From positions 1,184,001-1,248,000 of the forward strand of contig CAVZYA010000002.1 in the NCBI GenBank assembly GCA_963779415.1: 64,000 nucleotides of DNA. Reading direction: 5' to 3'. The notes below the pieces were generated by a model. It was not told the DNA's origin and made no database searches. It saw only the letters and a program-made list of their open reading frames with translations. Below are positions 13,153 through 35,563 of the stretch, piece by piece. Made by a program: the position numbers and the translations under genes. Source of the stretch: an uncultured Acidobacteriota bacterium (GTDB lineage Bacteria > Acidobacteriota > Thermoanaerobaculia > UBA5066). Positions within the stretch are counted from its first letter, which is position 1; every line of letters starts with the position of its first letter.

Positions 13153-13217
13153 GGCAAACGGCTCATGAACGGTCCGGAGCGGGGCGGGCGAGCCTTGCGC
13201 GGGAGGGTGATGCGCGC

Positions 13218-14273
13218 ATGACCGGTCGTCTCCCGGCGCTCCTCGCGGCGGCGCTTCTGCTTGCCGTCCCGACGGTTCGGGGTGTCGATGTCGCGAAGGA
13301 CGAAGTGGATACCTGCCTCTCCTGTCACGGGGAGAAGAGCCTCGAGAAGAAACTGCCGAGCGGCGAGGTGAAGTCGCTCTTCGTGGACCGCGCCACCTTC
13401 GAGAAATCGGTCCACGGCGCCAAGCTGGGCTGCACCGGCTGCCACCCGGGCTACCAGGAGATTCCCCACCCCGAGCGTCCCGCGAAGGATCTCGCCTCCT
13501 TTACGGCCTCGTTCCGCGAGACGTGCCGGAGCTGCCATTTCGCCAACTACACCAAGGCCCTCGACGGCGTCCACTTCGCGGCCCTCTCGAAGGGAAACTC
13601 GGCCGCCCCCTTCTGCGTCGACTGCCACGGCTCCCACGACATCACCAAGCCCAACGAGCCGCGGACGAGGATCTCCGACACTTGCGGGACCTGCCATTCG
13701 ACCGAAGCCGAGCAGTATGCCGAGAGCGTCCACGGCAAGGCGCTCGCGGAGACGAACAACCCGGACGTTCCCGTCTGCACCGACTGCCACAAGTCGCACG
13801 CCATCGCCGACCCGAGAGGACAGACCTGGCGCATGAGCTCCCCCGAGACGTGCGGTCACTGTCACACGGACAAGGCCCGGATGGAGAAGTACGGCCTTTC
13901 GACGAACGTCTACCGTTCGTACCTCGACGACTTCCACGGCCGGAGCGCCTCGCTCATCGCAGGGCAGAAGAAGCAGGCGAAGAAGATCGTCGCCATCTGC
14001 GTCGACTGCCACGGCGTCCACGACATCGAGCGGGTGAAGGACGCGGGCTCGAAGGTCCTCAAGAAGAACCTGCAGGCGACCTGCGCGAAGTGCCATCCCG
14101 GCGCGCCGCCGAACTTCCCGGCGGCCTGGCTCTCGCACTACGAGCCGAGCCCGAAGAGAGCGCCGCTGGTCTGGGCGACGGCGCTCTTCTACCGGATTCT
14201 GATCCCCGTGATGATCGGAGGGCTCGTCCTCCAGGTCCTCCTGCACCTCTGGCGCGTGGTGGTGAACCGATGA
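13218..14273 (+). CDS. Multiheme cytochrome c (9 CxxCH) with signal peptide and C-terminal TM anchor
   Basis: CLSCH, CTGCH, CRSCH, CVDCH, CGTCH, CTDCH, CGHCH, CVDCH, CAKCH. Confidence 0.92.
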   Translation: MTGRLPALLAAALLLAVPTVRGVDVAKDEVDTCLSCHGEKSLEKKLPSGEVKSLFVDRATFEKSVHGAKLGCTGCHPGYQEIPHPERPAKDLASFTASFRETCRSCHFANYTKALDGVHFAALSKGNSAAPFCVDCHGSHDITKPNEPRTRISDTCGTCHSTEAEQYAESVHGKALAETNNPDVPVCTDCHKSHAIADPRGQTWRMSSPETCGHCHTDKARMEKYGLSTNVYRSYLDDFHGRSASLIAGQKKQAKKIVAICVDCHGVHDIERVKDAGSKVLKKNLQATCAKCHPGAPPNFPAAWLSHYEPSPKRAPLVWATALFYRILIPVMIGGLVLQVLLHLWRVVVNR

Positions 14274-15004: not shown

Positions 15005-15955
15005 ATGTCCGGGACGCTTCTCTCCCTCGTCGTCCAGTCGGCAGCGGCCGCGGCGTCTGACCTCCGTTCTTCTGTCGACGTGGGGCGTCCGGCGCCCGGC
15101 AGCAAGACTCCGCTTCTGGCTTCTCGCTCTCGCCCTCCCCGTCGTTCTTCCGCCCCTCTTCGCGCTCGCGGCGCCGGTTCGCGCCTCGGAGCCGTTCCGG
15201 CGGAACGTGGCTCTCTTCGTCGCCACGCGCTGGGCGATGCTTCCTCTGGGAACGGGGCGTCTCGGGGGCGCCCTGGCGGCGGTCGTGGCGGCCGCCGGCC
15301 TCGCGCTCTTCCTGCGCGATCTCGTCCCGGCGCTCCGGCAGGGCTTCCACGTCCGGTCGCACGACGACGAAAGCGATCCCCGCGGGCGAGGAGATCGGGG
15401 ATCGCGTCGCGGCCCAGGCCGACCCGACGGGCGGTCGCGCCGCCGGCCACGGCCCTCGTTACGGACGACGAGGCGGCGTATCTCTACTGCCGCGGGCTCA
15501 CGCATCCGGTCGTCGCCGTCTCGACGGGCGCGCTCGCGGCGCTCTCGGACGAGGAGCTGGACGCGGCTCTCGCGCACGAAGTGGCCCACGTCGCGGGGAG
15601 GCACCTCCTCTTCGGCTGGGGCCTGATCGCCCTCCGCTCGCTCTTCTTCTTCAACCCCGTGGCCCAGATCGTCGGCCGGACGGCCGTCCTCGAGATGGAA
15701 CGCGCGGCGGACGACGATGCGGCGGCCGCGACGGGGCGCCCGGCAACCGTCGCCTCGGCGCTCGCGAAGCTCGGCGTCATGACCGACGATGACGGACTCA
15801 ACCTGCCGGGCGGCCTCCGATTCACGGCCGTCAAGGCGCGGCTCCTCCGGCTCGCGGAGCGGAAAGAAGGGATCGAAGGGGACGGTCTCGACGCCTTCCG
15901 GCTTTCCCTCGCGGGCGTGGGGATCGCTCTTCTCGTCTTCTTCGTGGTGCCGTGA
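15005..15955 (+). CDS. M56/M48 (BlaR1-like) membrane zinc metallopeptidase, with internal compensating frameshifts
   Basis: ELDAALAHEVAHV (HExxH), FFFNPVA, EMERAADD; the N-terminal TM segment FWLLALALP lies in an alternative frame. Confidence 0.75.
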   Translation: MSGTLLSLVVQSAAAAASDLRSSVDVGRPAPGSKTPLLASRSRPPRRSSAPLRARGAGSRLGAVPAERGSLRRHALGDASSGNGASRGRPGGGRGGRRPRALPARSRPGAPAGLPRPVARRRKRSPRARRSGIASRPRPTRRAVAPPATALVTDDEAAYLYCRGLTHPVVAVSTGALAALSDEELDAALAHEVAHVAGRHLLFGWGLIALRSLFFFNPVAQIVGRTAVLEMERAADDDAAAATGRPATVASALAKLGVMTDDDGLNLPGGLRFTAVKARLLRLAERKEGIEGDGLDAFRLSLAGVGIALLVFFVVP

Positions 15956-16524
15956 GAGACGACGCCCTGGCCGTCCCGCTCCGCCCCGTCGCGGCTCTCG
16001 TCGGAAGGTTCATCGCCGTCCTCGGGGTGGTGGCCGCCTCCCTTCTCGTTCTCGATGCCGTGCCCGGGGTTCTCTCCGGTCTCGGCCGGGACGTCACCGC
16101 GTACCGGAGCGTGGAGGCGGCCGAGGCGGCGCTCGGGGCGAAGCTCCTCCTCCCCGCCTACTTCCCGGACGCGTACCGGTGGCCGCCCGAGGCGATCCGC
16201 ACCGTCTCGAAGCCGGTCCGTGCCGCGGCGCTCCTGATCGCGCCGCGCCGCGCGGGGACGGAGAAGATCCTCTTCGTCCAGTCGCTCGACGGCGACGTCG
16301 CTCTTCCCGAGTCGCTCCTTCCGGCCGGGAAAGAGGTTCATCGGGTTGCATTCGATCTCGAAGGGACTCCGGCCGTCATGGCGGACGTCATCCTTCCGCC
16401 CGACGGGACGTTCCACGACGTCGCCTTTCTCGCGGAGGGCCGGAGTATCGTCTTTCGTTTCCAGGGAGATCCCGAGGAGATCCTGAAGATGGCGGGGAGT
16501 CTCCCTCGCGGAGAGCCGCGATGA
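15952..16524 (+). CDS. Membrane-anchored hypothetical protein
   Basis: N-terminal TM; overlaps both neighbours by 4 nt (operonic coupling). Confidence 0.7.
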   Translation: MRDDALAVPLRPVAALVGRFIAVLGVVAASLLVLDAVPGVLSGLGRDVTAYRSVEAAEAALGAKLLLPAYFPDAYRWPPEAIRTVSKPVRAAALLIAPRRAGTEKILFVQSLDGDVALPESLLPAGKEVHRVAFDLEGTPAVMADVILPPDGTFHDVAFLAEGRSIVFRFQGDPEEILKMAGSLPRGEPR

Positions 16525-18299
16525 GCGACGGGACACCGAGAACGGGGCGCCGGCTCGAAGGGCGTGCGATCGTCCTGATGATCATCGGGCTCGCCGTCCC
16601 CGCCCTTCTCTTCGGGCTCTCCGGCTTCCGGACGCTCCGGGAGTACCGGAAGGAGATCCTCGCCGAGCGCGAGAGGCTGGCGACGGCCATCGCCGGGCAC
16701 GTCAACGCGACGCTCCATGCGTCCCTCGGCGACCTCTGGGCGCTGCAGTCGGGTTCGGTCCCCGCGGAATCGGCCCGGGCACGGCTCCACGAGGCCCTGC
16801 TTCGCTCTCCCTTTCTCGACAGGGTCTGCCTCGCGAGCGCCTCGGGCGCCGTGACATGGCACGAGCCGTCTCACGCCCCGCTCCCGCCTGCCGACGCGAT
16901 CGATGCCGCGATCGCGGAGGCCCGGCGGACGTCGCAGGTGGCGTTCCGGACGGTCCCGAAGGAGCCGGCCGGCCTGGGCCTCATGATCGTCGTCCCTCTT
17001 TTCGGTTCCGGCGGGGAAGGCGCGGTCTGCGCCGGCGCCCTCCTCGACCCCGCCCGGCCGGAGCTCGCCTCGATCCTTGAGACGGGACTCGTCGGCGTCG
17101 GGGCGTCCGTGGACGTCGTGGATGCGTCGGGACGGGTCCTCGCGTCTTCCCGTGCCGGCCGGGTCGGTCTGACGGTGATGCTGCCGGCGGCGGCCGGCCG
17201 TTCGGCCGCGGCCGTCGAGCAGGGGGAGGTCGTCGCCTCCGCGCCGCTCACGATTCTTCCTCTCGCGGTCGTCGTCCGGCAGGAAGAGGAGGAGTTTCTC
17301 GCGCCGCTCCACGCGGCCGAGCGGCGCGTCCTCGTCGCGGCTCCGTTCATCCTCGTGCTCGTGATCCTCTTCGCGTGGGGTGCCGCGCGCAGCCTGACCC
17401 AGCCGATCGCGGTCCTGACGTCGGCCGCGGAGCGAATTGCCGGGGGAGAGCTCTCTCGCGAGATCCCGCCTCTCGGCGAAGACGAGGTGGGCCGCCTCGG
17501 CCGTTCGCTCGAGACGATGCGTGGCAAGCTGTCGGAGGCCTTCGAGCGCGACCGGCGCGTGCAGGAAGAGCTGGAGCGTCGCGTGACCGAGCGGACGCAC
17601 GACCTTCTGGCGCTGACCCGCGAGCTGAAGGACCGGGACGAGCGGCGGGCATGGCTTCTCGGGAAGTTCATCCGTGCGCAGGAGGAGGAGCGAAAGCGGA
17701 TCGCCCGCGAGCTTCACGACGAGACGTGCCAGACCGTGGCGGCTCTCTCCGTTGCCGTCGACACGGCGCTCGCGATGCCGCCCGATCCCGAGCGGCGCCG
17801 GCTCGGCGAGATCAAGGATCTCGCGGCCCGCGCGCTCGCGGAGGTGCACCGCGTCATCTACGATCTTCGCCCCTCGGTTCTCGACGACCTCGGCCTCGCG
17901 GCGGCCGTCCGCTGGCTCGGAGAGAGGCACCTCGCGCCGCTCGGCATCGCGTTCCGGTGCGAGATCGAAGGGCTCGACGAGCGCCTTCCCGTCGAAGTCG
18001 AGACGGCGGTCTTCCGTGTCGTCCAGGAGGCGCTCATGAACATCGTGCGCCACGCCCGGGCCGAGAGCGTCCTCGTCCAGATGGAGCGGAGGAACCACCG
18101 GCTCGAGATCGAGGTGGAGGACGACGGGCGCGGATTCGAGCCGGAGTCGGTCACGACGCCGGAGTCGTCGGGGCGCGGCTTGGGCCTTCTCGGCATCCGT
18201 GAGAGAGTCGAGCTCCTGGGAGGGAAGGTGACGATCGAATCGGCGCCGGACCAGGGAACACGCGTGGCGGTCTTCGTCCCGATCCCCGAAGGGGCCTGA
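16521..18299 (+). CDS. Sensor histidine kinase (periplasmic sensor, HAMP, HisKA_3, HATPase)
   Basis: Two TMs, DEVGRLG (HAMP), EERKRIARELHDE, QEALMNIVRHA, DDGRGF, GLGLLGIRER. Confidence 0.93.
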   Translation: MSDGTPRTGRRLEGRAIVLMIIGLAVPALLFGLSGFRTLREYRKEILAERERLATAIAGHVNATLHASLGDLWALQSGSVPAESARARLHEALLRSPFLDRVCLASASGAVTWHEPSHAPLPPADAIDAAIAEARRTSQVAFRTVPKEPAGLGLMIVVPLFGSGGEGAVCAGALLDPARPELASILETGLVGVGASVDVVDASGRVLASSRAGRVGLTVMLPAAAGRSAAAVEQGEVVASAPLTILPLAVVVRQEEEEFLAPLHAAERRVLVAAPFILVLVILFAWGAARSLTQPIAVLTSAAERIAGGELSREIPPLGEDEVGRLGRSLETMRGKLSEAFERDRRVQEELERRVTERTHDLLALTRELKDRDERRAWLLGKFIRAQEEERKRIARELHDETCQTVAALSVAVDTALAMPPDPERRRLGEIKDLAARALAEVHRVIYDLRPSVLDDLGLAAAVRWLGERHLAPLGIAFRCEIEGLDERLPVEVETAVFRVVQEALMNIVRHARAESVLVQMERRNHRLEIEVEDDGRGFEPESVTTPESSGRGLGLLGIRERVELLGGKVTIESAPDQGTRVAVFVPIPEGA

Positions 18300-18300
18300 C

Positions 18301-18948
18301 GTGGCGAAGATCCGCGTCGTCATCGCCGACGATCACGCCCTCCTTCGGGAAGGGATCCGCGCCCTCCTCTCCCGCGAGAGCGACATCGAGGTCGTCGGGG
18401 AGGCCCCCGACGGGCGCGAGGCGATCGCGCGCTGCCGGACGATGAAGCCGGACGTCGTCCTGATGGACATCGCGATGCCGGGACTCGGGGGCCTCGAGGC
18501 GTCGCTCGAGATCCGCAAGGAGTGTCCCGAGACCCGGATCCTCGTCCTGACGCAGTACGAGGACCGCGAGTACGTGGCCCGGTTCCTCAAGGCCGGCGCC
18601 GCGGGCTACGTCCTGAAGCGGACGGCCGGGTCGGAGCTGGCTTCGGCGATCCGGAGCGTCCACCGGGGAGGGCTCGTCCTCGATCCGCAGGTGGCGCGCG
18701 AGGCGCTTCGCGAGAACGAGCCCGCGGTCGAGGCGGGCAGCGACCGCTACGAGTCGCTCACCGACCGCGAGAAGCAGGTTCTGAAGCTCGTCGCGGAAGG
18801 GAAGAGCAACAAGGAGGTCGCCGAGCTGCTGGGGATCTCGGTGAAGACGGCGATGTCGCACCGGGAGCACGTCATGGAGAAACTGGGCCTCCACAACCGC
18901 ACCGACCTGATCCGCTTCGCCCTCAAGGCGGGCGTCATCACGTCCTGA
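18301..18948 (+). CDS. NarL/LuxR-family response regulator
   Basis: IADDH, LMDIAMP, GYVLK, LTDREKQVL...GKSNKEVA HTH. Confidence 0.95.
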   Translation: MAKIRVVIADDHALLREGIRALLSRESDIEVVGEAPDGREAIARCRTMKPDVVLMDIAMPGLGGLEASLEIRKECPETRILVLTQYEDREYVARFLKAGAAGYVLKRTAGSELASAIRSVHRGGLVLDPQVAREALRENEPAVEAGSDRYESLTDREKQVLKLVAEGKSNKEVAELLGISVKTAMSHREHVMEKLGLHNRTDLIRFALKAGVITS

Positions 18949-18951
18949 GGC

Positions 18952-20151
18952 TTACTTCTTCCCGTCTTCGGGCCTGGATCTTACGCCGGGCCGACAGAGG
19001 ACGCCGCCGGGGTTTCGCGCGTAGAGAACCGGCACGGCCCAGTCGAGCGCGTCCTCTCCGAGCGTTCCGGCGAGGCCGGCGCGCGCTTCCCGGAACGCGG
19101 TCGCGACCGGAAGCCCGTCCGCGATCGCGCCGTAGAGCTCGGCCGAGAACGCGACGGCCGCATCGTCGAAGATCCGGTACTGGTTCGCGGCGACCGCCGG
19201 GAGTCCGGCGTGAGCGAGCGCGGGGGCGACGCCGCGAAGAAAGTCGCGCCGGCCGCCGCGCCCCGTTTCGCAGGCGTTCAGGACCACGAGGAGGAGTCCC
19301 CGCCCCGACGCGAAGCGGGCGAGCGCTTCGGCGGAGAGCCGTCGCGCGCGGCCCCGCCCGTCCTCCAGAAAGAGGGCGCCGCTTCGCTCCTTCTCGTCGT
19401 ACTCGCCGTGCCCGACGAAGTGAAGGACGTCGAATTTTCCGCTCCGAAGCTTTCCGTGGAGAGTCTCCGGCGTCGCCTTCGGGAGGATTTCGAGCGAGGC
19501 GGCGCCCCGCGCGAGAAGCGGCGCGAAGGCCGCCCGCAGGGAGTCCTCTTCCCGGCGTGCCGCGAGGGGAGCCATCCCCGCCGGTCGCGCGGCGGCGAAG
19601 AGGATCCGGAGGGGGCCGCGTCGCGCGCGCGGGGCCTCGGCGGGGACGGCAGAGAAGACGTTCCGGACGATCGTGGCCGGGCCGTGCGCCAGGAACGTCC
19701 GGCGCGCCGGATCGAAGGCGAGCTCCCACGGCTTCCCGGCGACCCAGTCGAGCGCGGAGGTGAAGACGAGCGGAACGGGCGCACCCGGGGAGCGGGCGAC
19801 GGCCGCATCCCAGAGGCGCCGGATGTCGCCCGGAAAGAGCGCCTCGAAGAGCGCCGTCCCGTACCGGACGAGCTCCTTCCCTCCCGGGAGCGACGAGAAC
19901 GGCGCGCGCCCGTCGAGCGCGCGGAGGAGCCGCTCGTTCAGCTCGACGATCCGGCGCATCCGCTCTCCCGCCTCGCCCCCTTTCGTCTCGAAAGGGGTCA
20001 CGACGGTCGCGCCGGCGTACGACGCGACGAGCTGGGCCTGCGAGAGAGACTCTCCCGGCGCGAGGACGACGAGGTCGAAGCGCTCCGAGGCGGGGAAGGA
20101 TGCGCGGGTCGCTCTTCGCCGCGGCAGACGGCGTCCCTCCGTGGAGTTCAT
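18952..20151 (-). CDS. Stand-alone CHAT (caspase-like) domain protein
   Basis: PWEL, VLHFVGHG (catalytic His), VLNACETG (catalytic Cys), DWAVPVLY. Confidence 0.88.
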   Translation of the reverse strand: MNSTEGRRLPRRRATRASFPASERFDLVVLAPGESLSQAQLVASYAGATVVTPFETKGGEAGERMRRIVELNERLLRALDGRAPFSSLPGGKELVRYGTALFEALFPGDIRRLWDAAVARSPGAPVPLVFTSALDWVAGKPWELAFDPARRTFLAHGPATIVRNVFSAVPAEAPRARRGPLRILFAAARPAGMAPLAARREEDSLRAAFAPLLARGAASLEILPKATPETLHGKLRSGKFDVLHFVGHGEYDEKERSGALFLEDGRGRARRLSAEALARFASGRGLLLVVLNACETGRGGRRDFLRGVAPALAHAGLPAVAANQYRIFDDAAVAFSAELYGAIADGLPVATAFREARAGLAGTLGEDALDWAVPVLYARNPGGVLCRPGVRSRPEDGKK

Positions 20152-20182: not shown

Positions 20183-20731
20183 TCACTTCTTCGGGAGGAT
20201 CGTCTCGAGCTTCGAGGTCAGCTCGGCGGAGACCGGGTCCACGCGGGAGCCGAATCGCGCCACGATCCTGCCGTCCGGGCCGATCAGGAACTTGTTGAAG
20301 TTCCACGTGATGGCCCCCGCGAACCCCTCCTGCGTCGTGAGCCATCGATAGAGAGGCGCGATGTCGCTCCCCTTGACGCTGATCTTCGAGAAGATCGGAA
20401 ACGTGACGTGGTATTTCGACGTGCAGAACTGCTTGATCTCCGGATCGGTGCCGGGCTCCTGCCAGAGGAAGTTGTTCGCCGGGAAGGCGAGGACGACGAA
20501 GCCCCGGTCCCGGTACTTCTCGTAAAGCTCCTCGAGACCGGCGTACTGCGGCGTGAAGCCGCACTTCGAAGCCGTGTTGACGACGAGGACGACCTGCCCC
20601 TTGAAGGCCGAGAGCGGCTGCTCCACGCCGTCGACCGTCTTCATCGTAAAGTCGAAGAGGGTGGTCGGGGTGGCCGCGGCCGAAGCCCGTGTGACTGCGA
20701 CGAGGGCAAGGAGCGTGACCGCCGTCTTCAT
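20183..20731 (-). CDS. Glutathione peroxidase family (Cys-type), exported
   Basis: Signal peptide, VNTASKCGFT, LAFPANNF, ITWNFNKFLI. Confidence 0.93.
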   Translation of the reverse strand: MKTAVTLLALVAVTRASAAATPTTLFDFTMKTVDGVEQPLSAFKGQVVLVVNTASKCGFTPQYAGLEELYEKYRDRGFVVLAFPANNFLWQEPGTDPEIKQFCTSKYHVTFPIFSKISVKGSDIAPLYRWLTTQEGFAGAITWNFNKFLIGPDGRIVARFGSRVDPVSAELTSKLETILPKK

Positions 20732-20758
20732 GGGTTTCTCTTTTCTCCTTCGGGGAAC

Positions 20759-22513
20759 CTACGACACCGTGGGTGCTGCCGGATGGCACCCGGCCGCCTC
20801 CGGCCGGGTCTCGCCCGACAGCGCCGACGCCTCCAGCACCAGGCTCCGTTGGCGAAACAGCTCGTCCAGCTGCTGTCGGACCGCCGCCTCTCCCTCCTGA
20901 CGGCGGCGGTGGCCCGCATCGACCGCCCCCAGGACGTCCTGCCGCATGCCGTCCAGTCGAACCCGCATTCCCGTCTCGAGCTGCCGGGTCAGTGCGTCTA
21001 TCCAGTCGATGAGGTGCTTGTCGATCTCGTGAAGATTGGTTCGCAGCCACTCCCGGGCGAGCGCCTCGGAACGGTCGGACGCCCTCCGGACGACGGCCCG
21101 CCTCGGGGAAAAAGTATCGAGAATCGGGATCACCCACGCCTCGACATCGAGGGCCTGCACCGGCTCGACGAACTCGAAGATCATCGCCTGCGGATCGATC
21201 GTCAGGACCTCGGGCTCGAAGCGCGCCACGGGGATGTCGAACGCCTTCGCCGCCGCCTCCGCGGTCCGGTCGATCAGGCGGTTGGTCTCGGCGCTCACAC
21301 GCTCGATCTGCTCGGCGCGGTGCCGGTCGAACTCCTCGGTGGCCCGCTTGGCCGAGTCGTCGACGAGCTTCCTGACCTCCCCGTAGGCGATCTCGCGGGC
21401 CATGCCGCGGATGCGCCCGGCACCGGCTCGGCGGCTCCGCCCGGCGGCGCGCTCGACCTCCCGGCCGATCCCGCGGACGACTTCACCCAGGAGTTCGGTC
21501 CCCCGGGCTTCCCACGCCTCCCAATCGAACCCGAAATCGGACTTGACGCGGGTGCACGCCGCGAGGACCAGGTCGTCGATGTCCCGCATGGCTTCGCGGA
21601 AGCCGTCGATCCGGCGGCCGATCTCCTCGAGCGGGGCCACGAGGACGGCGCGCTCGAGGTCGAGCTGCTGCAGCAGGTGGGCTGCGATGTGGCGTATCGC
21701 GCGCCTCGCCGATGCCTGGGCCAGCTCGGCGCCGGAGCGGGTCGCGAGCGCGGACAGCTCGAGGAGGACCGCGGAGACGCCGGGGTCCGCCCCGTCGCGA
21801 AGCGCCGCACGCGCGGAAGCGTGGATCAGGACGCCGGGGTCGTGGCCGAGCGCGCCCTGCAGGACCTGCCGCGTGAACGCCTCGGCCTTCAACCGCGTCG
21901 CCTCGCGCACCCGGTCGGACTTGTTGAGGACGATGCAGAGCCGCCCGACGTCGGGCGCCACGGCCTTTACCAGCCCGAGCTCCTCGCCCGAGATCGGCGG
22001 GTCCGAGCCCAGCACGACGACCGCGACGTCGATGCGGGGCAGGAACGAGCGGGTCACCTCGGAGTTGCTCGTAAAGACGCTTCCGACGCCGGGTGTGTCG
22101 ACGAGCCGGATGCCGGTGGCAAGGAGCGCAGCGGGAAGCTCGATCCGGACGACCCGGACACCCTTCCGGTTGCCCGGGTTCTCCTCCTCGGAGACGAAGA
22201 GGCGGACCTGGTCGACCCCGATCTCCTCCTCGCGACCGTCCTCGAACCGGACGCTCGCGCGCTCGGCCGGACCGTGCTCGACGAGCGTGATCGCGGTGGT
22301 GATGGGCGCCACGTCGGTGGGCAGGAGCTCCCGGCCGAGCAGGGCGTTGATCAGGGTGCTTTTGCCGCGCTTGAACTGACCCATCACCGCGACGTTGAAC
22401 CGACGAAGGGCCAGGGCCTCGCGGATCTCACGTGCCTCGGCGAGAATCCCTTCCTGCTTCCGCTTGCCGGCGACGAGCTCGAGATTCCGTAAGGCCTGTT
22501 GTTCCGCCTGCAT
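20759..22513 (-). CDS. Bacterial dynamin-like GTPase (dynamin B of the pair)
   Basis: G1 GQFKRGKST, G2 PITT, G3 LVDTPG, G4 LNKSD, SEEENPGN; helical C-terminal stalk. Confidence 0.92.
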   Translation of the reverse strand: MQAEQQALRNLELVAGKRKQEGILAEAREIREALALRRFNVAVMGQFKRGKSTLINALLGRELLPTDVAPITTAITLVEHGPAERASVRFEDGREEEIGVDQVRLFVSEEENPGNRKGVRVVRIELPAALLATGIRLVDTPGVGSVFTSNSEVTRSFLPRIDVAVVVLGSDPPISGEELGLVKAVAPDVGRLCIVLNKSDRVREATRLKAEAFTRQVLQGALGHDPGVLIHASARAALRDGADPGVSAVLLELSALATRSGAELAQASARRAIRHIAAHLLQQLDLERAVLVAPLEEIGRRIDGFREAMRDIDDLVLAACTRVKSDFGFDWEAWEARGTELLGEVVRGIGREVERAAGRSRRAGAGRIRGMAREIAYGEVRKLVDDSAKRATEEFDRHRAEQIERVSAETNRLIDRTAEAAAKAFDIPVARFEPEVLTIDPQAMIFEFVEPVQALDVEAWVIPILDTFSPRRAVVRRASDRSEALAREWLRTNLHEIDKHLIDWIDALTRQLETGMRVRLDGMRQDVLGAVDAGHRRRQEGEAAVRQQLDELFRQRSLVLEASALSGETRPEAAGCHPAAPTVS

Positions 22514-22563
22514 GCCGCTCCCCGCGGCCGAGCCCGGCCCGGGCCGCCTGACACCGCCTTACT

Positions 22564-22617
22564 GTGTAGGGGTCATCAGCGGTCGAACGCCGCGATTATG
22601 GCGGACTCCATCGCCGG
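22564..22617 (-). ncRNA. Fluoride riboswitch (crcB motif), copy 1
   Basis: Minus strand reads GGCGAUGGAGUCCGCCAUAAUC-GCGG-CGUUCGA-CCGC-UGAUGACCCCUAC, matching the known consensus (P1 GGCG/CGCC, P2 hairpin, pseudoknot GGAGU/ACCCC with one A-C mismatch). It lies about 50 nt upstream of the dynamin B ATG. Confidence 0.88.
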
Positions 22618-22621
22618 CGGA

Positions 22622-22630
22622 AGCCTAGCA
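22622..22630 (-). promoter_or_regulatory. Extended -10 element upstream of riboswitch 1
   Basis: Minus strand TG-C-TAGGCT ending 6 nt before the aptamer's GGCGAUG. Confidence 0.5.
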
Positions 22631-22701
22631 GCCCGTGAGAAAAGTCGGAAGGGTCGCAAGGGCTCCTGGAATCGGCGTGAGATCTGGACTATGAAGAGGG
22701 G

Positions 22702-23847
22702 ATGAGACGGCGGATTCGCGCGCTCCTCCGGCACCCGGTCGTCCGGATGCTTCTCTTCGAGCGCTTTCTGATCACCGGCTCCGCCACCCTGGCGTTCTCC
22801 GCGCTCGCGATGGGGCGCGTCCGGCCCGGGGAGGTCGGGGCCCTCATGGACTGGCGGATCCTGACGCTCTTTTTCGTCCTGACCGTCGCGGTCGAGCTGG
22901 GGAAGGCCTCCGATCTGTTCGACCGGCTGGTCGTCTTCGTCATTCGGCGCGTCCGTTCGGTGCGAGGGCTGGCCTTCGCCATGGCCGGCGTCACCGGCGG
23001 GCTCTCCGCGATCCTGACGAATGACGTGACGCTCTTCCTCGTCGTGCCGTTCACGATGTCGTTCGGCAGCGTGGACGGGGTCGAACTGCACAAGCTCGTC
23101 GTCATCGAGGTGCTCGCGGCGAACCTCCTCGGCGCCGTCACGCCGATCGGAAACCCGCAGAATCTCTTCCTCTACGCGCGGGGCGGCTTTTCGCCCGCGT
23201 CCTTTCTGGAGACGCAGCTCCCGCTCGTCGGAGCGTCGGCCGTCCTTCTCGCGGCGGCCATTCTTCTCTTCATCCCGCGCCAGGAGATCACGCCGCCGGC
23301 CACCGCGTCGTTCGACGTCGACCCGGTGCTGGCCGGCGGCTTCTTCCTTCTTCTCGCCGCCGAGGTCGGCAGTCTTCTCGGGCCGCTGCCGCATCTCGTT
23401 CCGCTCGCCCTGGCTCTCCCGTCCGCGCTCCTCCTCGGGCGGCGGCTCAAGGAGGCGGACTTCTCGATCGTCATGGTCTTCGCGCTTCTCTTCATCGGCA
23501 TTCCCGGCCTGGAACGGGGCCGGCTCTACCACCACATCGATCCCGGGGTCCTCTTCGGGCACCACGCCGTCGGACTCCTCCTCTCCGGCGCCCTGCTTTC
23601 GCAGCTCGTGTCCAACGTTCCGGCCGCCCTGCTCCTGGCGCCGGCCGTCATGGGGCCGCAGGGGTTCCACGGCCTTCTCTACGGGGTCACGGCCGGGGCG
23701 TGCGGAAGCCCCATCGGCTCGATCGCGAACCTGATCGGGGCTCAGATCTACGTGGCCGAGGGAGGAAATCCCCGAACGTTCTGGCGATTCTTCTGCGGAA
23801 TCTCAGCCGTCATCCTGATTGCGCTCGTCGTCTTCGCGGCTCTCCTG

Positions 23848-23868
<21 letters not shown>
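22702..23868 (+). CDS. ArsB/NhaD/SLC13 (IT superfamily, YbiR-like) anion permease
   Basis: LSAILTNDVTLF, AANLLGAVTPIGNPQNL, SQLVSNVPAA, SPIGSIANLI; polytopic membrane protein. Confidence 0.88.
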
Positions 23869-25961
<2,093 letters not shown>

Positions 25962-25965
25962 TCAC

Positions 25966-28041
25966 TCATGGCGCTCTCGGCGCGGCCTTCATTTCGCCGG
26001 CCTGCGGAGGGGCGTTTCGCTCGAACGGCTCGAGCGCCTGAAGGTCCGCCCGGAGCTTCGCCCGAGCCGCCTGATCCTGGGACGACTCGCCGCCTCGCGC
26101 CTCGCGCGCGAACGGCTCCGTGGCTCCGTGGTAGGCGCCCGCCAGGTGCTCTACGGCGTGGTCGGCCCAGTCCCTCAGCCGGTAGCCGTAGACGCGAAGA
26201 GCCTCGCGGAGCGGAACTCGGTGCGAGCCCTGAAGGCGATTGAGGAGGCGCTGCGCCGCCCACCCGGGTACGACCCCAAGGAGGAGCGGACGGCCGAGCC
26301 TCCGCTCCGGGAGCGGACCCGAAAGGTCCGCGGCGGGGAGCCCGGTGAAGTCCGGCGTGGCACGGCTCGCCGCGAAGACTTCCGAGGCCGCCGGGGCCAC
26401 GGCTGCGGCGGAAGTGGAGAGCCCGCGGTGCAGGCCCCGGAGCGCCTCGACGATGCCGCCGCGGACCGCGCCGGTCAGCAAGTCGGCGGCGAGGCCGACG
26501 AGGGCGCGCGCCTCGAGCGGCCCCGTCTCCCCCTCGTTCCAGCGCCGGACACCGTCCGAGACGGCCGCGATCAGGATCTCTCTCCAGCGCTCCTGGAGCC
26601 CGTCGGCCGCCTGCACGACCGTCCGGTGCGTCTCGGCAACGAGAGCATCCGCGCGGCGCCTCTCCTCGGAGGCGGAGCCGCTCCGGGCACTCGCGCCGTC
26701 GCCGGCGCGCACGCGGAGCGCCGCCGTCACCCCTTCGAGGAGCCGGCCCGCCATCCGGCGGATCGACTCCTCCACCAGCTCCTTCCGGCGCGCGAAGAGC
26801 GGGGCGAGCTTCGTCTCGAACCATTTCTTCACCAGTGGGCGCCCTTCGTCGATCGCGCTGACCAGGCTCACCGAGACGGAGGCCCCGAGCTCTCGCGCCA
26901 GTCCTTCCTCGACGTACCGCTTCACCTTCGATTGCGCTTCCTCGTGCACGAGGTCGGCCTTGCTGATCAGGATTTCCACGGGAATGGCGGCATCCCGGAA
27001 GAGATGGAGCAGTCCCCTCTCGTCCGGCCCGGGGGCCGAGCCGACGTCGAGAAGAAGAAGCGCGAGATCGGTTCGCGGCAGGTAGGCGAAAGCCTCCTCC
27101 GCTCCCGCAGTGGCGAGCGAGCCGATCCCGGGGGTATCGACCAGCTCGACGCCCTCGGGGAGGCCGGGCGCCGGAAAGACGACCTCGAGCCGCGCGACGC
27201 GCTTCACGTTTCCGGGGTTCTCCTCCTCCGAGGCGAGTTCCACGAGACGCGCAAGCGGAAGCGTCTCGCTCCGGCCGTCGGCGTAGCGGACCCGGGCCTC
27301 CGGCGGCGTGCCGACGTGGACACGGGCCGGCACCGCCGTCACCGGCGTCACGCCGACCGGGAGGATCGGCGCCCCGAGCAGGGCGTTGAGGAGCGACGAC
27401 TTTCCCGAGCCGACGCGCCCGAAGACCGCGACGTGGAAGCTCTGCTCCTCCATCCGCTCGAGGAGCGAGCGGAACAGCCGCCGGAACTCCACGAGAGAGT
27501 CCTCGCGGATGACGCGCTCGAGGAGGGAGAGCAGCGCGGGCTCGACGGCGGTCCGGCCGAGTCGTGCGAGGCGGTCTCCGAACTCCTCCTCGGGGCCCCC
27601 GCTCAGAAAGCGCGAAAGATCGCGGAGCGTCCGGTCGATCTCGTCACACGTCCGGTCGACCTCCGCGGCGAGCCGCGGGTCGAGCGCCCCGTAGCCGCGA
27701 AGTCGCCGAGGCCTCACGTCGTCGACCCCGATCGACGCCATTGCCGCCCGGACCGCGATGGCGTGGCGGGCGTCGAGCGGCGATCCGGCGGGATCGAGCC
27801 CGTGCCGCCCGGCGGCGGCGAGGAGCGCCCGGCGCGCTCGCTCGATGTAGTCATTGATCAGACCCGCCTGGGCCGGCGAGATGTCGCCGACGAGCGGGTT
27901 GAAGGGCGACGGATGCCGGACCGCGACGAGGATCCCCTCGATGTCGTCCAGAAGGCCGGCGATGTGCCGTACCGCCGCCGACAGGCTCCGCCGCTGGGAT
28001 TCGTTGAGCCGGGGTTCCGGGCCCTCCGCGGGCGCCGACAT
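25966..28041 (-). CDS. Bacterial dynamin-like GTPase (dynamin A of the pair, with N-terminal helical extension)
   Basis: G1 GRVGSGKSS, G2 PVTAV, G3 LVDTPG, G4 ISKAD, SEEENPGN. Confidence 0.92.
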   Translation of the reverse strand: MSAPAEGPEPRLNESQRRSLSAAVRHIAGLLDDIEGILVAVRHPSPFNPLVGDISPAQAGLINDYIERARRALLAAAGRHGLDPAGSPLDARHAIAVRAAMASIGVDDVRPRRLRGYGALDPRLAAEVDRTCDEIDRTLRDLSRFLSGGPEEEFGDRLARLGRTAVEPALLSLLERVIREDSLVEFRRLFRSLLERMEEQSFHVAVFGRVGSGKSSLLNALLGAPILPVGVTPVTAVPARVHVGTPPEARVRYADGRSETLPLARLVELASEEENPGNVKRVARLEVVFPAPGLPEGVELVDTPGIGSLATAGAEEAFAYLPRTDLALLLLDVGSAPGPDERGLLHLFRDAAIPVEILISKADLVHEEAQSKVKRYVEEGLARELGASVSVSLVSAIDEGRPLVKKWFETKLAPLFARRKELVEESIRRMAGRLLEGVTAALRVRAGDGASARSGSASEERRRADALVAETHRTVVQAADGLQERWREILIAAVSDGVRRWNEGETGPLEARALVGLAADLLTGAVRGGIVEALRGLHRGLSTSAAAVAPAASEVFAASRATPDFTGLPAADLSGPLPERRLGRPLLLGVVPGWAAQRLLNRLQGSHRVPLREALRVYGYRLRDWADHAVEHLAGAYHGATEPFAREARGGESSQDQAARAKLRADLQALEPFERNAPPQAGEMKAAPRAP

Positions 28042-28058
28042 CGCGCCTACTCCGCCCG

Positions 28059-28121
28059 CTACTTCACGACGATGACGGCGCGGCGAACGCTACGGCTATC
28101 GAAGGATTCCGAAACCGGCAC
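28059..28121 (-). CDS. Putative 20-aa leader peptide (MPVSESFDSRSVRRAVIVVK)
   Basis: AGGAG SD, 8-nt spacer and GTG directly after riboswitch 2; TAG stop 17 nt before the dynamin A ATG. Confidence 0.4.
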   Translation of the reverse strand: MPVSESFDSRSVRRAVIVVK

Positions 28122-28139
28122 GGGAGAGACTCCTTTCGT

Positions 28140-28190
28140 CGGTAGGAGTCATCAGCCCGAAGGCGGTTCCGGCGAACTCCATCGCCTCTC
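28140..28190 (-). ncRNA. Fluoride riboswitch (crcB motif), copy 2
   Basis: Minus strand reads GGCGAUGGAGUUCGCCGGAACC-GCC-UUCG-GGC-UGAUGACUCCUAC: canonical P1, UUCG-capped P2 and a perfect GGAGU/ACUCC pseudoknot. It points toward dynamin A-eno, away from crcB. Confidence 0.95.
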
Positions 28191-28199
28191 TTCGGGACG

Positions 28200-28205
28200 A
28201 TTATA
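28200..28205 (-). promoter_or_regulatory. -10 element upstream of riboswitch 2
   Basis: Perfect TATAAT on the minus strand about 13 nt before the aptamer; no convincing -35. Confidence 0.55.
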
Positions 28206-28234
28206 GGGGGTCCGAGTCTGTTAACGTCGCGCCC

Positions 28235-28618
28235 GTGCGGCCCGCTCTCGTCGTCCTCGTCTTCGTCGGCGGCGGCATCGGATCAATCTGCCGCTACGCG
28301 CTGGCGACGAGCCTCCAACGGAGCTTCGCCGGACCGTTTCCGGTCGGCACGTTTGTCGTAAACCTCGCCGGCTGCTTCGCGATCGGCCTCGTCGGGGCGC
28401 TCGGCCTCGAGCGCGCGGCGATCTCCCCCGAGGCGCGTGTCTTCCTGATGGTGGGGATCCTCGGCGGCTTCACCACCTTTTCGTCGTTCACATGGGAAAC
28501 ACTCGGGCTTCTCACCGTGCGCGACATCCTTCGCGCCACGCTCTACGTCATGGGCTCGGTCTTCCTCGGACTCTTCGGCGCGTGGCTCGGGCGGCTCCTC
28601 GGGAGGGTCGGAACATGA
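28235..28618 (+). CDS. crcB: Fluoride channel Fluc/CrcB
   Basis: GGGIGSICRY, PVGTFVVNLAGCF, GILGGFTTFSSF; 4 TM, 127 aa. Confidence 0.97.
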   Translation: MRPALVVLVFVGGGIGSICRYALATSLQRSFAGPFPVGTFVVNLAGCFAIGLVGALGLERAAISPEARVFLMVGILGGFTTFSSFTWETLGLLTVRDILRATLYVMGSVFLGLFGAWLGRLLGRVGT

Positions 28619-28968
28619 AGGATCTCGCGATGGCCAAGCTGCTCCGGATTCACTTCGGAGAGGGGGATCGGGTCCGCCATCAGCCGCTCTATGAAGCGCT
28701 CGTGGCCGAAGCGCGAGCCACGGGCCTCGCCGGGGCCACGGTCCTTCGGGGCATCGAGTCGTACGGGGCGTCGAGCGTCGTCCACCGATCGCGTATCGTC
28801 GAGCTGTCGGAGGACCTTCCGATCGTCGTCGAGATCGTGGATGCCGAGGAGAAGGTCCGGGCCTTTCTCGAGCGCGTCGACCCCCTCCTCGAAGAGGCCG
28901 GGTGCGGCATCCTGATGACAATGGAAAAGGTCGAGATCGTCCGTTACGCGGCGAAGAAGAAGAGCTGA
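28615..28968 (+). CDS. DUF190 (PII-like) protein
   Basis: LLRIHFGEGD, GLAGATVLRGIESYG, LSEDLPIVVEIVD; the usual crcB partner; 4-nt overlap with crcB. Confidence 0.92.
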   Translation: MKDLAMAKLLRIHFGEGDRVRHQPLYEALVAEARATGLAGATVLRGIESYGASSVVHRSRIVELSEDLPIVVEIVDAEEKVRAFLERVDPLLEEAGCGILMTMEKVEIVRYAAKKKS

Positions 28969-33247: not shown

Positions 33248-35563
33248 TCATGCTTTCACCAGACTCGAAGGAAGCTTCATCTGGCCAAGCAGGCTCTGGA
33301 ATCGTGGATCGGAGCGCAACGTCTCCCAGTCCCAGGCCACTCCGAGATGAACGAGCGGCGACTCGCGCCGCTCGAAGCTCTTTTCGAGCCACGCCAGCGC
33401 CCGATTCCTCTCCCCCGCATGGGCCCAAAGCCGCGCGATACGGATGGAGGGGATGTACGTCCGCTCCGACCGTGCCGTCAGAGCCTCGGCCGCACGCTTC
33501 ATCGCCCCCGGGTACCCCGACTCCGCCCCGCCCCGGTCGATCGCCTCGGAGACCTCACGGTCCCCGATCAGCGCGAAGAACTTCTTCGCGGCCGAGAGGG
33601 CCTCCTCGGCTCGTGACTGTGCATGCAGGGCGCCCCAGAGACCCATCTGCGCGGACGGGAAGTTCGGCTCCACCCGGACCACCTTCCCCAGCCGCTCCAT
33701 CGCCTCCTCGTACCGGCGCAGGTAGATCAGGTGCCATCCGAAGAAGCACAGGACGAAGGGATTGAACGGATCGAGCTTCATGGCGGCCGCCGACTGTTCC
33801 ATGGCTTCTTCGGAGCGCTGCAGGGAGATCAGGAAATCGGAGTAGAAGAAGCGCGCCTCCGCGGAGTTGGGGTTCAGATGGAGCGCCCGTTGGTACTCGG
33901 CCTCCGCGCCTCCCCAGTCCCACTCGTAGAGGAACTTCAGCCCCGCGCGGCTGAGATGACCTTCGAATAGCGCCTCGTCCAGCTCGACCGCCTTCGACGC
34001 GGCCTCTCGCGCCTTCGGGAACGTCTCCGAGGGAGGAAGGATTCCGGAGTCTCCGCGGAGGAGCCAGACGTCGGCGATTCCCGCCTGTGCCGGCGCGCAC
34101 GCCGGATCCTTCTCGAGCGCCAGCTCGAAGTATCCGAGCGCCGTGTCGTAATGCTCGCGGGAGAGCTTGTACAGGTGATACCGACCCTTGAGGCAGGCGT
34201 CGTAGGCCTCCGCGTTGACCGGGCCGCGGAGGGACAGTCGCGCCGCCACCTTCACGCTCGCGGCCGACTGCACTTCCCGGGCGATCGCCTCGGCCACGGC
34301 TCCCTGCAGGGCGAGGACGTCCGCCAGGTCGCGTTCGTAGCTCTTCGCCCAGAGATTCATGTCGGTCGACGCCTCGATGAGCCGGGCGGTGATGCGCACC
34401 CGCGCCCCGGCGCGAAGGACCGAGCCCTCCACGACGGCGTCGACGTTCAGCTCCGTGGCAATGTCCGGGAGGGACTTCTCGGTCCGCTTGTAGCGCATGG
34501 CCGAGGTGCGCGAGATGACCCGCAAGGTTCCGATTCCCGCCAGGTCCCCGATCAGGGCGTCGGTCATGCCATCGGCGAAGTACTCCTGCTCCGGGTCCCC
34601 GGAGAGATTCGCAAGGGGAAGGACGACGAGCGACCGGATCCGCTTCCGCCGGCCGGCGCGTTTCGAGGGGAGCTTTCTCGCCCCCGACACGACGTCCGAC
34701 GAGACGGGGGCGCTCGTCGAGAGTGCCTGCAGCTCCGCCATCAGCTCCGCGGCCGACGGATAGCGCTCTTCGGGACGTTTCCTCAGGCACTTCAGGATGG
34801 CGTCTTCGAGTCCGGGAGGAATGCGGGGATTGGAATCCCCGGGCCTCGTCGGCTCCCGGTACTGAATGTCGGCGGCGAGAGCCGTCGCCACGGCGGCCCG
34901 GAACGGCCGCGCTCCCGTGGCCATTTCGTAGAGGACGACTCCCAGCGCCCAGAGGTCGCTTCGCGCGTCGGCCGGCTGGCCGCGCAGCTGCTCGGGCGCC
35001 ATGTAGGCGAGCGTGCCGGTCACCGTCCCCGCCGTCGTCAGCGCGGCCTGCGAGAGCGTCGTCGCTTCCGCCGCCTCCCCTCGCACCATCCGCTTTGCGA
35101 GGCCGAAGTCGAGGACCTTGGCGCGTCCCTCCGGTGTGATGACGATGTTCGCGCTCTTCAGGTCGCGGTGGACGACGCCGTGTCCGTGCGCGTGCGACAG
35201 CGCGTCGGCCACCTGGATTCCGAACCGGAGAATGTCTCCGAGCGGAAGCGCCCCGCGCGAAAGCCGGCCGCTCAGCGACTCCCCCTCGACCAGCTCCATC
35301 GCAATGAAGGTCTGGCCGTCGGCTTCGCCCACCTCGTGAATCGTGCAGACATGGGGATGGTTCAGTCTCGAGGCGAGACGCGCTTCCCGGAGCAGGCGCG
35401 CGCGCGCCGTCTGATCGGCCGAGGTCGCCGCTGGAAGAACCTTGATCGCCACCTCGCGTTCCAGCCGCGAGTCCTTCGCCCGGTACACCTCGCCCATTCC
35501 CCCCGCGCCGAGCGGGGCGACGACCTCGTATGGCCCGAGGCGAGTGCCCGCGGAGAGGCTCAT
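33248..35563 (-). CDS. Cytoplasmic Ser/Thr protein kinase with TolB-N-like and TPR domains
   Basis: LGAGGMGEVY, HRDLKSAN, DFGLAK, YMAPEQ; VLPLANLSGDPEQEYFADG; TPRs. Confidence 0.95.
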   Translation of the reverse strand: MSLSAGTRLGPYEVVAPLGAGGMGEVYRAKDSRLEREVAIKVLPAATSADQTARARLLREARLASRLNHPHVCTIHEVGEADGQTFIAMELVEGESLSGRLSRGALPLGDILRFGIQVADALSHAHGHGVVHRDLKSANIVITPEGRAKVLDFGLAKRMVRGEAAEATTLSQAALTTAGTVTGTLAYMAPEQLRGQPADARSDLWALGVVLYEMATGARPFRAAVATALAADIQYREPTRPGDSNPRIPPGLEDAILKCLRKRPEERYPSAAELMAELQALSTSAPVSSDVVSGARKLPSKRAGRRKRIRSLVVLPLANLSGDPEQEYFADGMTDALIGDLAGIGTLRVISRTSAMRYKRTEKSLPDIATELNVDAVVEGSVLRAGARVRITARLIEASTDMNLWAKSYERDLADVLALQGAVAEAIAREVQSAASVKVAARLSLRGPVNAEAYDACLKGRYHLYKLSREHYDTALGYFELALEKDPACAPAQAGIADVWLLRGDSGILPPSETFPKAREAASKAVELDEALFEGHLSRAGLKFLYEWDWGGAEAEYQRALHLNPNSAEARFFYSDFLISLQRSEEAMEQSAAAMKLDPFNPFVLCFFGWHLIYLRRYEEAMERLGKVVRVEPNFPSAQMGLWGALHAQSRAEEALSAAKKFFALIGDREVSEAIDRGGAESGYPGAMKRAAEALTARSERTYIPSIRIARLWAHAGERNRALAWLEKSFERRESPLVHLGVAWDWETLRSDPRFQSLLGQMKLPSSLVKA

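Follow-up and report, generated by a model that had tools for sequence, protein, structure and literature searches.

Dynamin-like proteins (DLPs) are widespread in bacteria and their physiological triggers are largely unknown; the known cases amount, loosely, to envelope stress caused by antibiotics, phage or isoniazid. Here we analyzed a stretch of 64,000 nucleotides, referred to below as the window, from an uncultured member of the Acidobacteriota (Thermoanaerobaculia, UBA5066; positions 1,184,001 to 1,248,000 of contig CAVZYA010000002.1, assembly GCA_963779415.1), in which two genes for DLPs, designated DLP-A and DLP-B, each follow a fluoride riboswitch of their own, designated RS1 and RS2, respectively. 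An earlier note on this DNA had interpreted the two genes as a split dynamin pair in a fluoride-triggered membrane-remodelling or protective system.

The Campylobacter jejuni proteins Cj-DLP1 and Cj-DLP2 (PDB 5owv and 5oxf) are two paralogous GTPases of the bacterial dynamin-like protein (BDLP) class, one of which is longer and carries an extra N-terminal domain. The N-terminal assembly domain of one partner is described as receiving the first helix of the other, and most bacterial DLP genes are described as being paired in operons (PMC6104087). DLP-A and DLP-B resemble this pair in their composition, in that A-type and B-type genes are usually encoded together and in that the Foldseek matches between them are full length. 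They differ in sharing just 12 to 15% identity with the C. jejuni proteins in structural alignments, in their N-terminal domain, which is all helical and approximately 200 residues long in DLP-A but a globular assembly domain of 119 residues in Cj-DLP1, and in the arrangement of the window genes in two units. Furthermore, the interaction between A and B is a prediction here, and the C. jejuni pair has no described fluoride riboswitch.

Mycobacterial IniA (with IniC; PDB 6j72 and 6j73) ranks first among the structural matches of DLP-A and DLP-B alike. It is described as a stress-induced DLP that shares its operon with a second DLP and mediates membrane fission; unlike DLP-A and DLP-B, it is induced by drug treatment, belongs to a different phylum and shares 16 to 17% identity with the window proteins. 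Induction of IniA operates via protein regulators and not via an RNA switch for an anion. The role that we propose for DLP-A and DLP-B is that of DynA of Bacillus subtilis, a two-headed protein described as tethering membranes, clustering there after exposure to pore-forming antibiotics or phage and maintaining membrane integrity. DynA is one fused polypeptide, whereas DLP-A and DLP-B are separate, and to our knowledge DynA is not known to be fluoride regulated.

Classical fluoride regulons comprise crcB, CLC-F, enolase, pyrophosphatase, Usp, Na/H antiporter and MutS-like genes, and the FRM operon of Enterobacter cloacae is given as ppaC-uspA-eno-gpmA-crcB (PMC5533749). The locus described here has the same aptamer class, and genes for enolase, phosphoesterase, Na_H_Exchanger, Usp, the MutS_V pair and crcB-DUF190 surround the DLP genes in the window and in its relatives; it is unlike the classical regulons in that the window crcB lies outside riboswitch control. 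Dynamin-like GTPases are not among the riboswitch-associated gene classes presented by Weinberg in 2010 (PMC2864571), in the E. cloacae operon paper, in a 2022 riboswitch review or in a 2024 perspective on per- and polyfluoroalkyl substances (PFAS). Full-text searching found no report linking a fluoride riboswitch, crcB or a fluoride response with dynamins, and nothing relevant that joins the riboswitch to GTPases, gene tables in supplements and the study of Baker et al. 2012 (Science 335:233) lying outside its scope. The components, namely, the fluoride riboswitch, BDLP pairs and the fluoride regulon, are known, and the link between them appears to be new.

Two fluoride aptamers each precede a dynamin-like gene

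A scan of the whole window against Rfam at gathering thresholds returned two matches to any family, both of them minus-strand fluoride riboswitch aptamers (RF01734, gathering score of 34). RS1 (28136 to 28195) scored 57.3 bits (E = 2.8e-13) and RS2 (22560 to 22624) scored 47.3 bits (E = 5.5e-10), each over model positions 1 to 64, and the matches enclose the coordinates at which the earlier note had placed two aptamers (28140 to 28190 and 22564 to 22617). No other fluoride riboswitch was found in a search of the genome (4,359,815 bases in 3 contigs, 92.4% complete). In an alignment of 68 aptamers from this and related genomes, 97.4% of the cells of P1, P2 and the pseudoknot were paired and compensatory changes were present at 9 of the 13 pairs, a level of covariation that was attained by 0 of 500 shuffles. 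By their Rfam scores both aptamers are genuine, and the extent of pairing and the compensatory changes show that these RNAs are under structural selection; fluoride binding and switching by RS1 and RS2 are predicted from their homology to known aptamers.

The two aptamers are of different descent. The core of RS1 is identical to that of the aptamer heading a Na/H exchanger-Usp-DLP-A-MutS-like-enolase-phosphoesterase operon in a genome of the same genus. The pseudoknot strand of RS2, in contrast, reads ACCCC rather than ACUCC, which creates an A.C mismatch that recurs in the ortholog of a same-genus genome (G001; L035 15268-15332, minus strand); these are the sole two unpaired cells at that pseudoknot pair among the 68 aptamers. 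A recent duplication is therefore not supported as the origin of the "duplicated riboswitches" of the earlier note. The ACCCC change in RS2 may be tuned to the GGGG-rich Shine-Dalgarno (SD) sequence that lies downstream.

RS1 ends 94 nt and RS2 ends 46 nt before the start codon of the respective DLP gene on the same strand. In both cases the first full-size gene after the aptamer is dynamin-like, as had been read from the sequence originally, and only a 20-codon open reading frame (ORF) intervenes at RS1. DLP-A (25966 to 28041, minus strand) is a 691-residue GTPase with a Dynamin_N match at residues 204 to 333 (75.9 bits), and DLP-B (20759 to 22513, minus strand) is a 584-residue GTPase with a match at residues 41 to 198 (90.8 bits); the cutoff is 27 bits. 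The reading of complete G1 to G4 motifs in both proteins also stood: DLP-A has G208xxxxGKS215, T235, D302TPG305 and S360KAD363 (G4 being SKAD), invariant in an alignment with 7 relatives, and DLP-B has G45xxxxGKS52, T72, D139TPG142 and K198xD200, invariant in an alignment with 26 relatives. The N-terminal extension of DLP-A, helical and approximately 200 residues long, is conserved in the alignment, and DLP-B has no such extension.

DLP-A and DLP-B are the only genes of the genome with a full Dynamin_N domain, two other matches (25 to 27 bits) spanning the first 35 to 47 profile positions. Since the genome has no other DLP, the two proteins, unlike the adjoining enolase, are not reserve copies of a housekeeping enzyme that is inhibited. 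Replacement of a fluoride-inhibited housekeeping DLP was rejected on these grounds.

DLP genes are linked to fluoride riboswitches in the order and in other phyla

In order to survey other genomes for a riboswitch followed by a dynamin gene, the RF01734, Dynamin_N (E <= 1e-8) and CRCB models were run on 151 genomes of the order, among them the genome of the window. Riboswitches were present in 59 genomes (78 matches), Dynamin_N in 29 (41 genes) and CRCB in 130. All 29 genomes with Dynamin_N were among the 59 with a riboswitch, and none of the 92 riboswitch-negative genomes carried the domain. A same-strand riboswitch was located within 5 kb upstream of 40 of the 41 DLP genes, the distance from the riboswitch to the start of the Dynamin_N domain being at most 400 nt in 25 cases, 401 to 1500 nt in 6 and 1501 to 5000 nt in 9. 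The sole exception, a DLP of genome G103, falls in a different, unlinked clade of DLPs. These tallies include one riboswitch-then-crcB row from an unpublished genome (G025), the locus L023 of which is also among the tblastn subjects, and the crcB count includes one row from a second unpublished genome (G030); nothing else presented here depends on either of them.

We considered whether the riboswitches were selected for enolase, the phosphoesterase and glutathione peroxidase or, formerly, for crcB, with the DLPs hitch-hiking and having no fluoride-specific role. Enolase is a classical fluoride-regulon gene (PMC5533749), and in family f2 crcB comes first after the riboswitch and the DLPs later. 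However, when the 78 riboswitches of the order were sorted by their first recognized target, this was a DLP in 27, crcB in 31 (with a DLP pair following in 4), another gene in 2 (both with a DLP no more than 5 kb away) and something else or unknown in 18. Moreover, several loci (L046, L048 and L053) have no recognized fluoride gene after the DLP, the DLP clade essentially never occurs in the order without a riboswitch, and the link survives changes of gene order and phylum boundaries. Because the linkage is near obligate, hitch-hiking fits poorly, and we regard it as highly improbable.

With crcB in 130 of the 151 genomes and riboswitches in 59, most crcB genes of the order are evidently without riboswitch control, whereas DLPs are almost never without a riboswitch. 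More widely, it appears that in many Acidobacteriota crcB is not placed under the riboswitch, which is reserved for other genes; this bears on how soil bacteria meet the entry of hydrogen fluoride (HF) at low pH and on the engineering of fluoride tolerance for organofluorine degradation.

The linkage was also found in a sample of 151 genomes from the phylum, in which 25 of the 46 DLP genes were riboswitch linked once the rows of G000 and G010, already contained in the order count, had been left out. A maximum-likelihood tree (quick search, LG+G4) was built from 72 DLPs, assigned to the Acidobacteriota by record titles; two DLPs shorter than 400 residues (G037_C2_1629660 and G241_C123_1556) and 13 DLP genes that were not retrieved were omitted. 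The tree contained a clade of 55 DLPs (SH-aLRT support, 98), 52 of them linked, and a sister clade of 17, none of them linked. One of the three unlinked members of the large clade lies on a long branch, and for a second, G208:C25, the 6 kb that were examined contain no riboswitch. The third belongs to G202 and is probably the result of an assembly break, because a near-identical relative in G229 has its riboswitch 4.9 kb upstream and the equivalent position in G202 falls beyond the contig end. In the sister clade of 17 (L074-L089), which is never riboswitch linked, the Dynamin_N match is split into positions 1 to 47 and approximately 93 to 166, which indicates an insertion in the G domain.

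Beyond the phylum, a profile built from 27 DLP-B sequences detected at least 591 DLP-B relatives at one genome per GTDB species, and the best 80 of these were surveyed with 4-kb flanks. Their titles were mostly those of Acidobacteriota (Terriglobia, Thermoanaerobaculia and others), and the remainder included Gemmatimonadales, Verrucomicrobiia, Binatia, Myxococcales, Burkholderiales/Betaproteobacteria, Limnocylindrales and "delta proteobacterium." With a covariance model made from the 68 aptamers, a same-strand riboswitch was detected within 4 kb upstream in 47 of the best 80 loci. This number is a lower bound, as many Terriglobia loci run DLP-A, crcB, one gene and DLP-B, with DLP-A leaving the flank. 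When five apparently negative loci, assigned by contig number and coordinates, were checked on whole records, three had a riboswitch just past the flank, one had a riboswitch approximately 5.9 kb beyond it and one had none on the contig.

The Rfam model at its gathering score confirmed the riboswitch in 12 of the 16 loci among the best 80 that were not labelled Acidobacteriota, and the riboswitch-DLP link was found in metagenome-assembled genomes (MAGs) labelled Gemmatimonadota, Verrucomicrobiota, Binatia, Myxococcales and Burkholderiales. In a FastTree analysis to which 32 of the 80 loci were added, comprising these 16 and 16 chosen Acidobacteriota, the rows from other phyla nested among the acidobacterial B-type DLPs. 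This nesting suggests that the riboswitch-DLP module has moved horizontally, with mis-binned MAG contigs as an alternative explanation. Taken as a survey, the linkage recurs across the order, the phylum and other phyla and the linked DLPs form a clade, and a one-off rearrangement was rejected. Two of the genomes behind these loci, G299 (L099, Acidobacteriaceae) and G300 (L108, Acidiferrales), contain 17 and 22 riboswitch matches (E <= 0.001), respectively, compared with the usual 1 to 3 per genome.

A-type DLPs are usually accompanied by a B-type DLP

Within the linked clade, 14 rows form an A-type subclade (support of 100), which is distinguished by the N-terminal extension of approximately 200 residues, and the B-type subclades are without it. 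A-type and B-type genes stand in tandem behind one riboswitch in 9 related genomes. In family f2 the arrangement is crcB-DUF190-DLP(B)-DLP(A) or DLP(B)-DLP(A) behind one riboswitch, and the order A then B was observed in two genomes of other families. A B-type gene is present in 13 of the 14 genomes with an A-type gene, the 14th being cut by a contig end. Because relatives carry B and A in tandem behind one riboswitch, the window layout is best explained as a derived, split version of the tandem pair, and the term "split dynamin pair" used in the earlier note is borne out by the comparison.

By analogy with Cj-DLP1, the N-terminal extension of the A-type could mediate assembly. A protein atlas search with this domain of DLP-A gave no usable match. 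A complex prediction for residues 1 to 200 of DLP-A with full-length DLP-B, made without controls, returned a score of 0.00, which bears neither way on binding.

Candidate promoters and expression platforms

The earlier note had reported a -10 element just upstream of each aptamer. For RS1, a perfect TATAAT box (28200 to 28205, minus strand) is the candidate -10 of the transcript, and no properly spaced -35 element was found for it. For RS2, the upstream sequence offers a weak TAGGCT only. A two-hexamer promoter scan of positions 20500 to 28700, a region that includes both aptamers, returned 0 sites. The claim stands only partly. The RS1 box lies in the gap of approximately 39 nt (28196 to 28234) between the 5' end of RS1 and the start codon of the divergent crcB gene. 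This gap contains a single AT-rich box (minus strand, TATAAT; plus strand, ATTATA), so that the promoter of crcB necessarily overlaps either the RS1 promoter or the aptamer DNA.

A candidate expression platform for RS1 was identified at 28128 to 28150 (minus strand), where the 3' strand of the aptamer, GACUCCU, can pair with AGGAGUC, the SD sequence of a leader ORF. This hairpin is present in both the minimum-free-energy and the centroid folds of the RS1 leader, and in the ligand-bound fold the GACUCCU strand is instead part of the pseudoknot. The leader ORF (28059 to 28121, minus strand) consists of the 20 codons that intervene at RS1, runs from GTG at 28121 to TAG at 28059 and ends 17 nt before the ATG of DLP-A. 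The DLP-A ortholog of G012 has an equivalent CUCCUAG/CUAGGAG hairpin and a 30-codon leader ORF (L034, approximately 2735-2835, minus strand) whose UGA overlaps the GUG of DLP-A. The position of the leader ORF is thus kept between the window and G012, and the two peptide sequences are unrelated.

A terminator scan found no intrinsic terminator near or after RS1 or RS2. SD sequestration is therefore preferred over a terminator/antiterminator mechanism, which was rejected for both aptamers. We infer that RS1 is a translational ON switch that acts through the leader ORF, via either translational coupling or protection from Rho, and Rho-dependent control is possible for both the RS1 and RS2 units. 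In genus g4 the DLP start codon is located just approximately 7 nt past the aptamer match, a spacing that is compatible with direct translational control too. The platform of RS2 is less clear than that of RS1; its ACCCC strand could pair with GGGGAG, the SD sequence of DLP-B.

Fold class and predicted membrane role

In profile searches DLP-B matched Nostoc BDLP (2j68, E = 2.3e-36) and mycobacterial IniA (6j72, E = 2e-31), and both DLPs matched both chains of C. jejuni DLP1/2 (5owv) with E values of 1e-20 to 1e-31 and mitofusins more weakly. In the AlphaFold2 models (mean predicted local distance difference test scores of 78.5 for DLP-A and 86.2 for DLP-B), bundles of long helices come after the G domain, and the tip, at approximately residues 559 to 591 in DLP-A and 426 to 456 in DLP-B, is loosely ordered. 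For both models the top Foldseek matches were IniA, BDLP and Cj-DLP (580 to 720 aligned columns), with E values of 1e-15 to 1e-18 for IniA and BDLP over 590 to 690 columns; the template modelling scores were low (0.3), as expected for hinged proteins. NCBIfam models for DynA, CrfC and other GTPases gave P-loop-level matches only, at scores so far below their cutoffs (40 to 55 bits against 1600 for DynA) that neither protein is a DynA or CrfC equivalog. From sequence and models, DLP-A and DLP-B can be assigned to the BDLP/mitofusin class, for which GTP hydrolysis and membrane remodelling are predicted.

We hypothesized that the two proteins constitute a fluoride-induced heterotypic pair that protects or remodels the membrane, and we consider this rather likely. 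The reasoning rests on the fold class, on the stress roles of DynA and IniA, on a cyclopropane-fatty-acid synthase gene that stands directly behind its own riboswitch in the G012 island and on a report of fluoride-triggered lysis in diverse bacteria. The island would then consist of a constitutive crcB-DUF190 unit and two gated units, RS1-leader-DLP-A-enolase-phosphoesterase and RS2-DLP-B-glutathione peroxidase, the latter perhaps extending to a gene for a CHAT-domain protein. As cytoplasmic fluoride rises, each aptamer would fold and its 3' strand would be taken into the pseudoknot, which would free the sequestered SD sequence and turn translation on, probably with an effect on transcript survival too. 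The induced products would be GTPases of the BDLP/mitofusin class, the A-type with its additional N-terminal helical domain and the B-type minimal. As the two halves of a heterotypic pair, they would assemble on the cytoplasmic membrane and spend GTP to tether, seal or pinch it, such that the envelope remains intact during fluoride/HF stress.

Alternatively, the G domains might themselves act as a trap or sensor for metal fluorides, binding GDP.AlFx or GDP.MgFx without an external GTPase-activating protein and serving as a sink that spares essential GTPases; or fluoride might lock G-domain dimers and so be both inducer and activator. The module is concentrated in MAGs titled Acidobacteriota and other lineages of soil, peat and sediment, habitats in which low pH and aluminium are common, the G1 to G4 motifs are strictly conserved, and the genome has no other DLP for which a back-up would be needed. 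Crystallization of Cj-DLP1 with GDP.AlF4 (PMC6104087) is also in keeping with a trap. However, a stoichiometric sink for millimolar fluoride seems quantitatively implausible, and the conserved stalk, trunk and tip, together with A/B pairing, favour a mechanical membrane role over simple binding. We therefore consider a trap or sensor unlikely. A combined version, in which fluoride acts as inducer via the riboswitch and as allosteric trigger, Mg- or Al-fluoride.GDP locking the A/B G domains in a transition-state dimer that serves as a stable membrane tether or scaffold for as long as fluoride is present, would make the clade a dedicated system for organelle repair under fluoride stress, spread horizontally among acid-soil bacteria. 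Such a lock, which strikes us as quite improbable, would if true be a protein machine evolved to exploit the GTPase-trapping chemistry of metal fluorides.

A further possibility is that the pair assists vesiculation or export, fission shedding vesicles that carry damaged membrane, fluoride-metal precipitates or misfolded proteins, or the DLPs organizing patches of Fluc channels with crcB-DUF190. The crcB-DUF190 genes adjoin 14 of the 27 riboswitch-DLP loci of the order and are cotranscribed with the DLP pair in family f2, IniA is described as mediating fission and mycobacterial DLPs as mediating vesicle release. Against this, many riboswitch-DLP loci have no crcB nearby and vesicle formation is hypothetical here; the proposal also overlaps the protective membrane role that we favour, differing only in the outcome for the membrane. 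Vesiculation seems to us decidedly unlikely.

Several points weigh against a fluoride-induced, membrane-protective pair. The two window genes lie 5.2 kb apart in separate riboswitch units rather than side by side in one operon, and B-types often occur alone, as in genus g4 and in G003, from which it follows that a hetero-pair is not obligatory. From 18 of the 21 unlinked DLPs of the phylum sample it is evident that bacterial DLPs of other kinds are without a link to fluoride. Folding z-scores do not stand out (-0.44 and -0.49 for the leaders at full length, -1.79 for a 99-nt piece of RS1), and the fold gives no clear platform for RS2. No transmembrane segment was predicted for either DLP (highest hydropathy over 19 residues, 1.55 for DLP-A and 1.31 for DLP-B), and membrane binding would be conferred by the loosely modelled tip, as judged by fold analogy. 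Induction of the DLP genes by fluoride is likewise deduced from aptamer homology; no RNA sequencing runs containing the window stretch were listed, and DNA runs carried at most 15% of the sampled words. A link between fluoride and membrane damage in these organisms is drawn by analogy, and most of the compared genomes are MAGs, in which errors of taxon labelling and of the assignment of some contigs are possible.

On balance, the interpretation offered originally divides into two parts: the regulatory link is strongly supported by comparative genomics and regulation by fluoride riboswitches is well supported, whereas the membrane-remodelling or protective function is predicted. The data suggest that fluoride is a natural trigger of bacterial dynamins. 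If this clade of DLPs is indeed wired to fluoride riboswitches, fluoride would be a cheap and defined inducer for the study of bacterial dynamins, because a riboswitch names its own ligand. A membrane role would, if true, add an arm of membrane mechanics to a fluoride response that so far comprises export (Fluc and CLC-F) and the replacement of inhibited enzymes.

The DLP genes lie in a putative fluoride-response island

The sole crcB gene of the genome, encoding a Fluc fluoride channel, is located at 28235 to 28618 (plus strand; PF02537 match at 28256 to 28591, 96.7 bits), divergent from RS1. It is followed by a DUF190 gene (28492 to 28968, plus strand; PF02641, 117 bits), in which the domain begins at ORF residue 49 and the true start is probably near 28620. 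The earlier note was correct in that crcB is not the gene at which either riboswitch points, but it left out that the only crcB of the genome begins approximately 39 nt away from RS1. The same layout, with crcB divergent within 600 nt, was observed in 14 of the 27 riboswitch-to-DLP loci of the order.

Downstream of DLP-A lies a second-copy enolase gene (24552 to 25865, minus strand) with Enolase_C and Enolase_N domains and a TIGR01060 score of 651 bits; the other enolase copy, elsewhere on the contig, is 58% identical to it. The start of the next gene, encoding a YfcE-family metallophosphoesterase (23848 to 24555, minus strand; Metallophos_2, TIGR00040), overlaps the enolase stop by 4 nt. The account of the surroundings in the earlier note had missed these two genes as well as the adjoining crcB-DUF190. 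Considered together, the gene content marks the region as a fluoride-response island whose crcB gene itself has no riboswitch in front of it.

The DLP-A and DLP-B units are separated by a gene for a permease of the CitMHS/ArsB-NhaD superfamily (22702 to 23868, plus strand; PF03600, 110 bits), which is divergent from RS2. A homolog with 71% identity is located directly downstream of a riboswitch-DLP in G067 (L052 2901-4055), and the permease may for this reason belong to the fluoride regulon. A glutathione peroxidase gene (20183 to 20731, minus strand; GSHPx, 129.9 bits) begins 27 nt downstream of DLP-B, a spacing from which it probably shares the DLP-B operon. The gene for a CHAT-domain (caspase-like) protein (18952 to 20151, minus strand; PF12770, 117 bits) follows after a further 31 nt. 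Within the genus, a CHAT gene adjoins a B-type DLP in three genomes, namely, in that of the window, in G001 (L035 15368-16528) and in G003 (L036 3864-5048), and its orientation varies.

In maps of 20 islands, the DLP genes are found among typical members of the fluoride regulon, namely, Na/H exchanger and Usp genes, MutS_V pairs, enolase, phosphoesterase and crcB-DUF190. Two islands are particularly dense, L034 (G012:C32:77000-96900) and L039 (G126:C4), with five riboswitches in approximately 16 kb in one and six in approximately 14 kb in the other. Some of these riboswitches form back-to-back divergent pairs, and among the genes targeted in the two islands are those for a MutS_V pair, cyclopropane-fatty-acid synthase, Na/H exchanger-Usp and enolase. 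The flanks of the island encode a multihaem cytochrome c, a HAMP histidine kinase with a LuxR-type response regulator and a Ser/Thr kinase with tetratricopeptide repeats (12903 to 14273, plus strand; 15789 to 18948, plus strand; and 33248 to 35563, minus strand).

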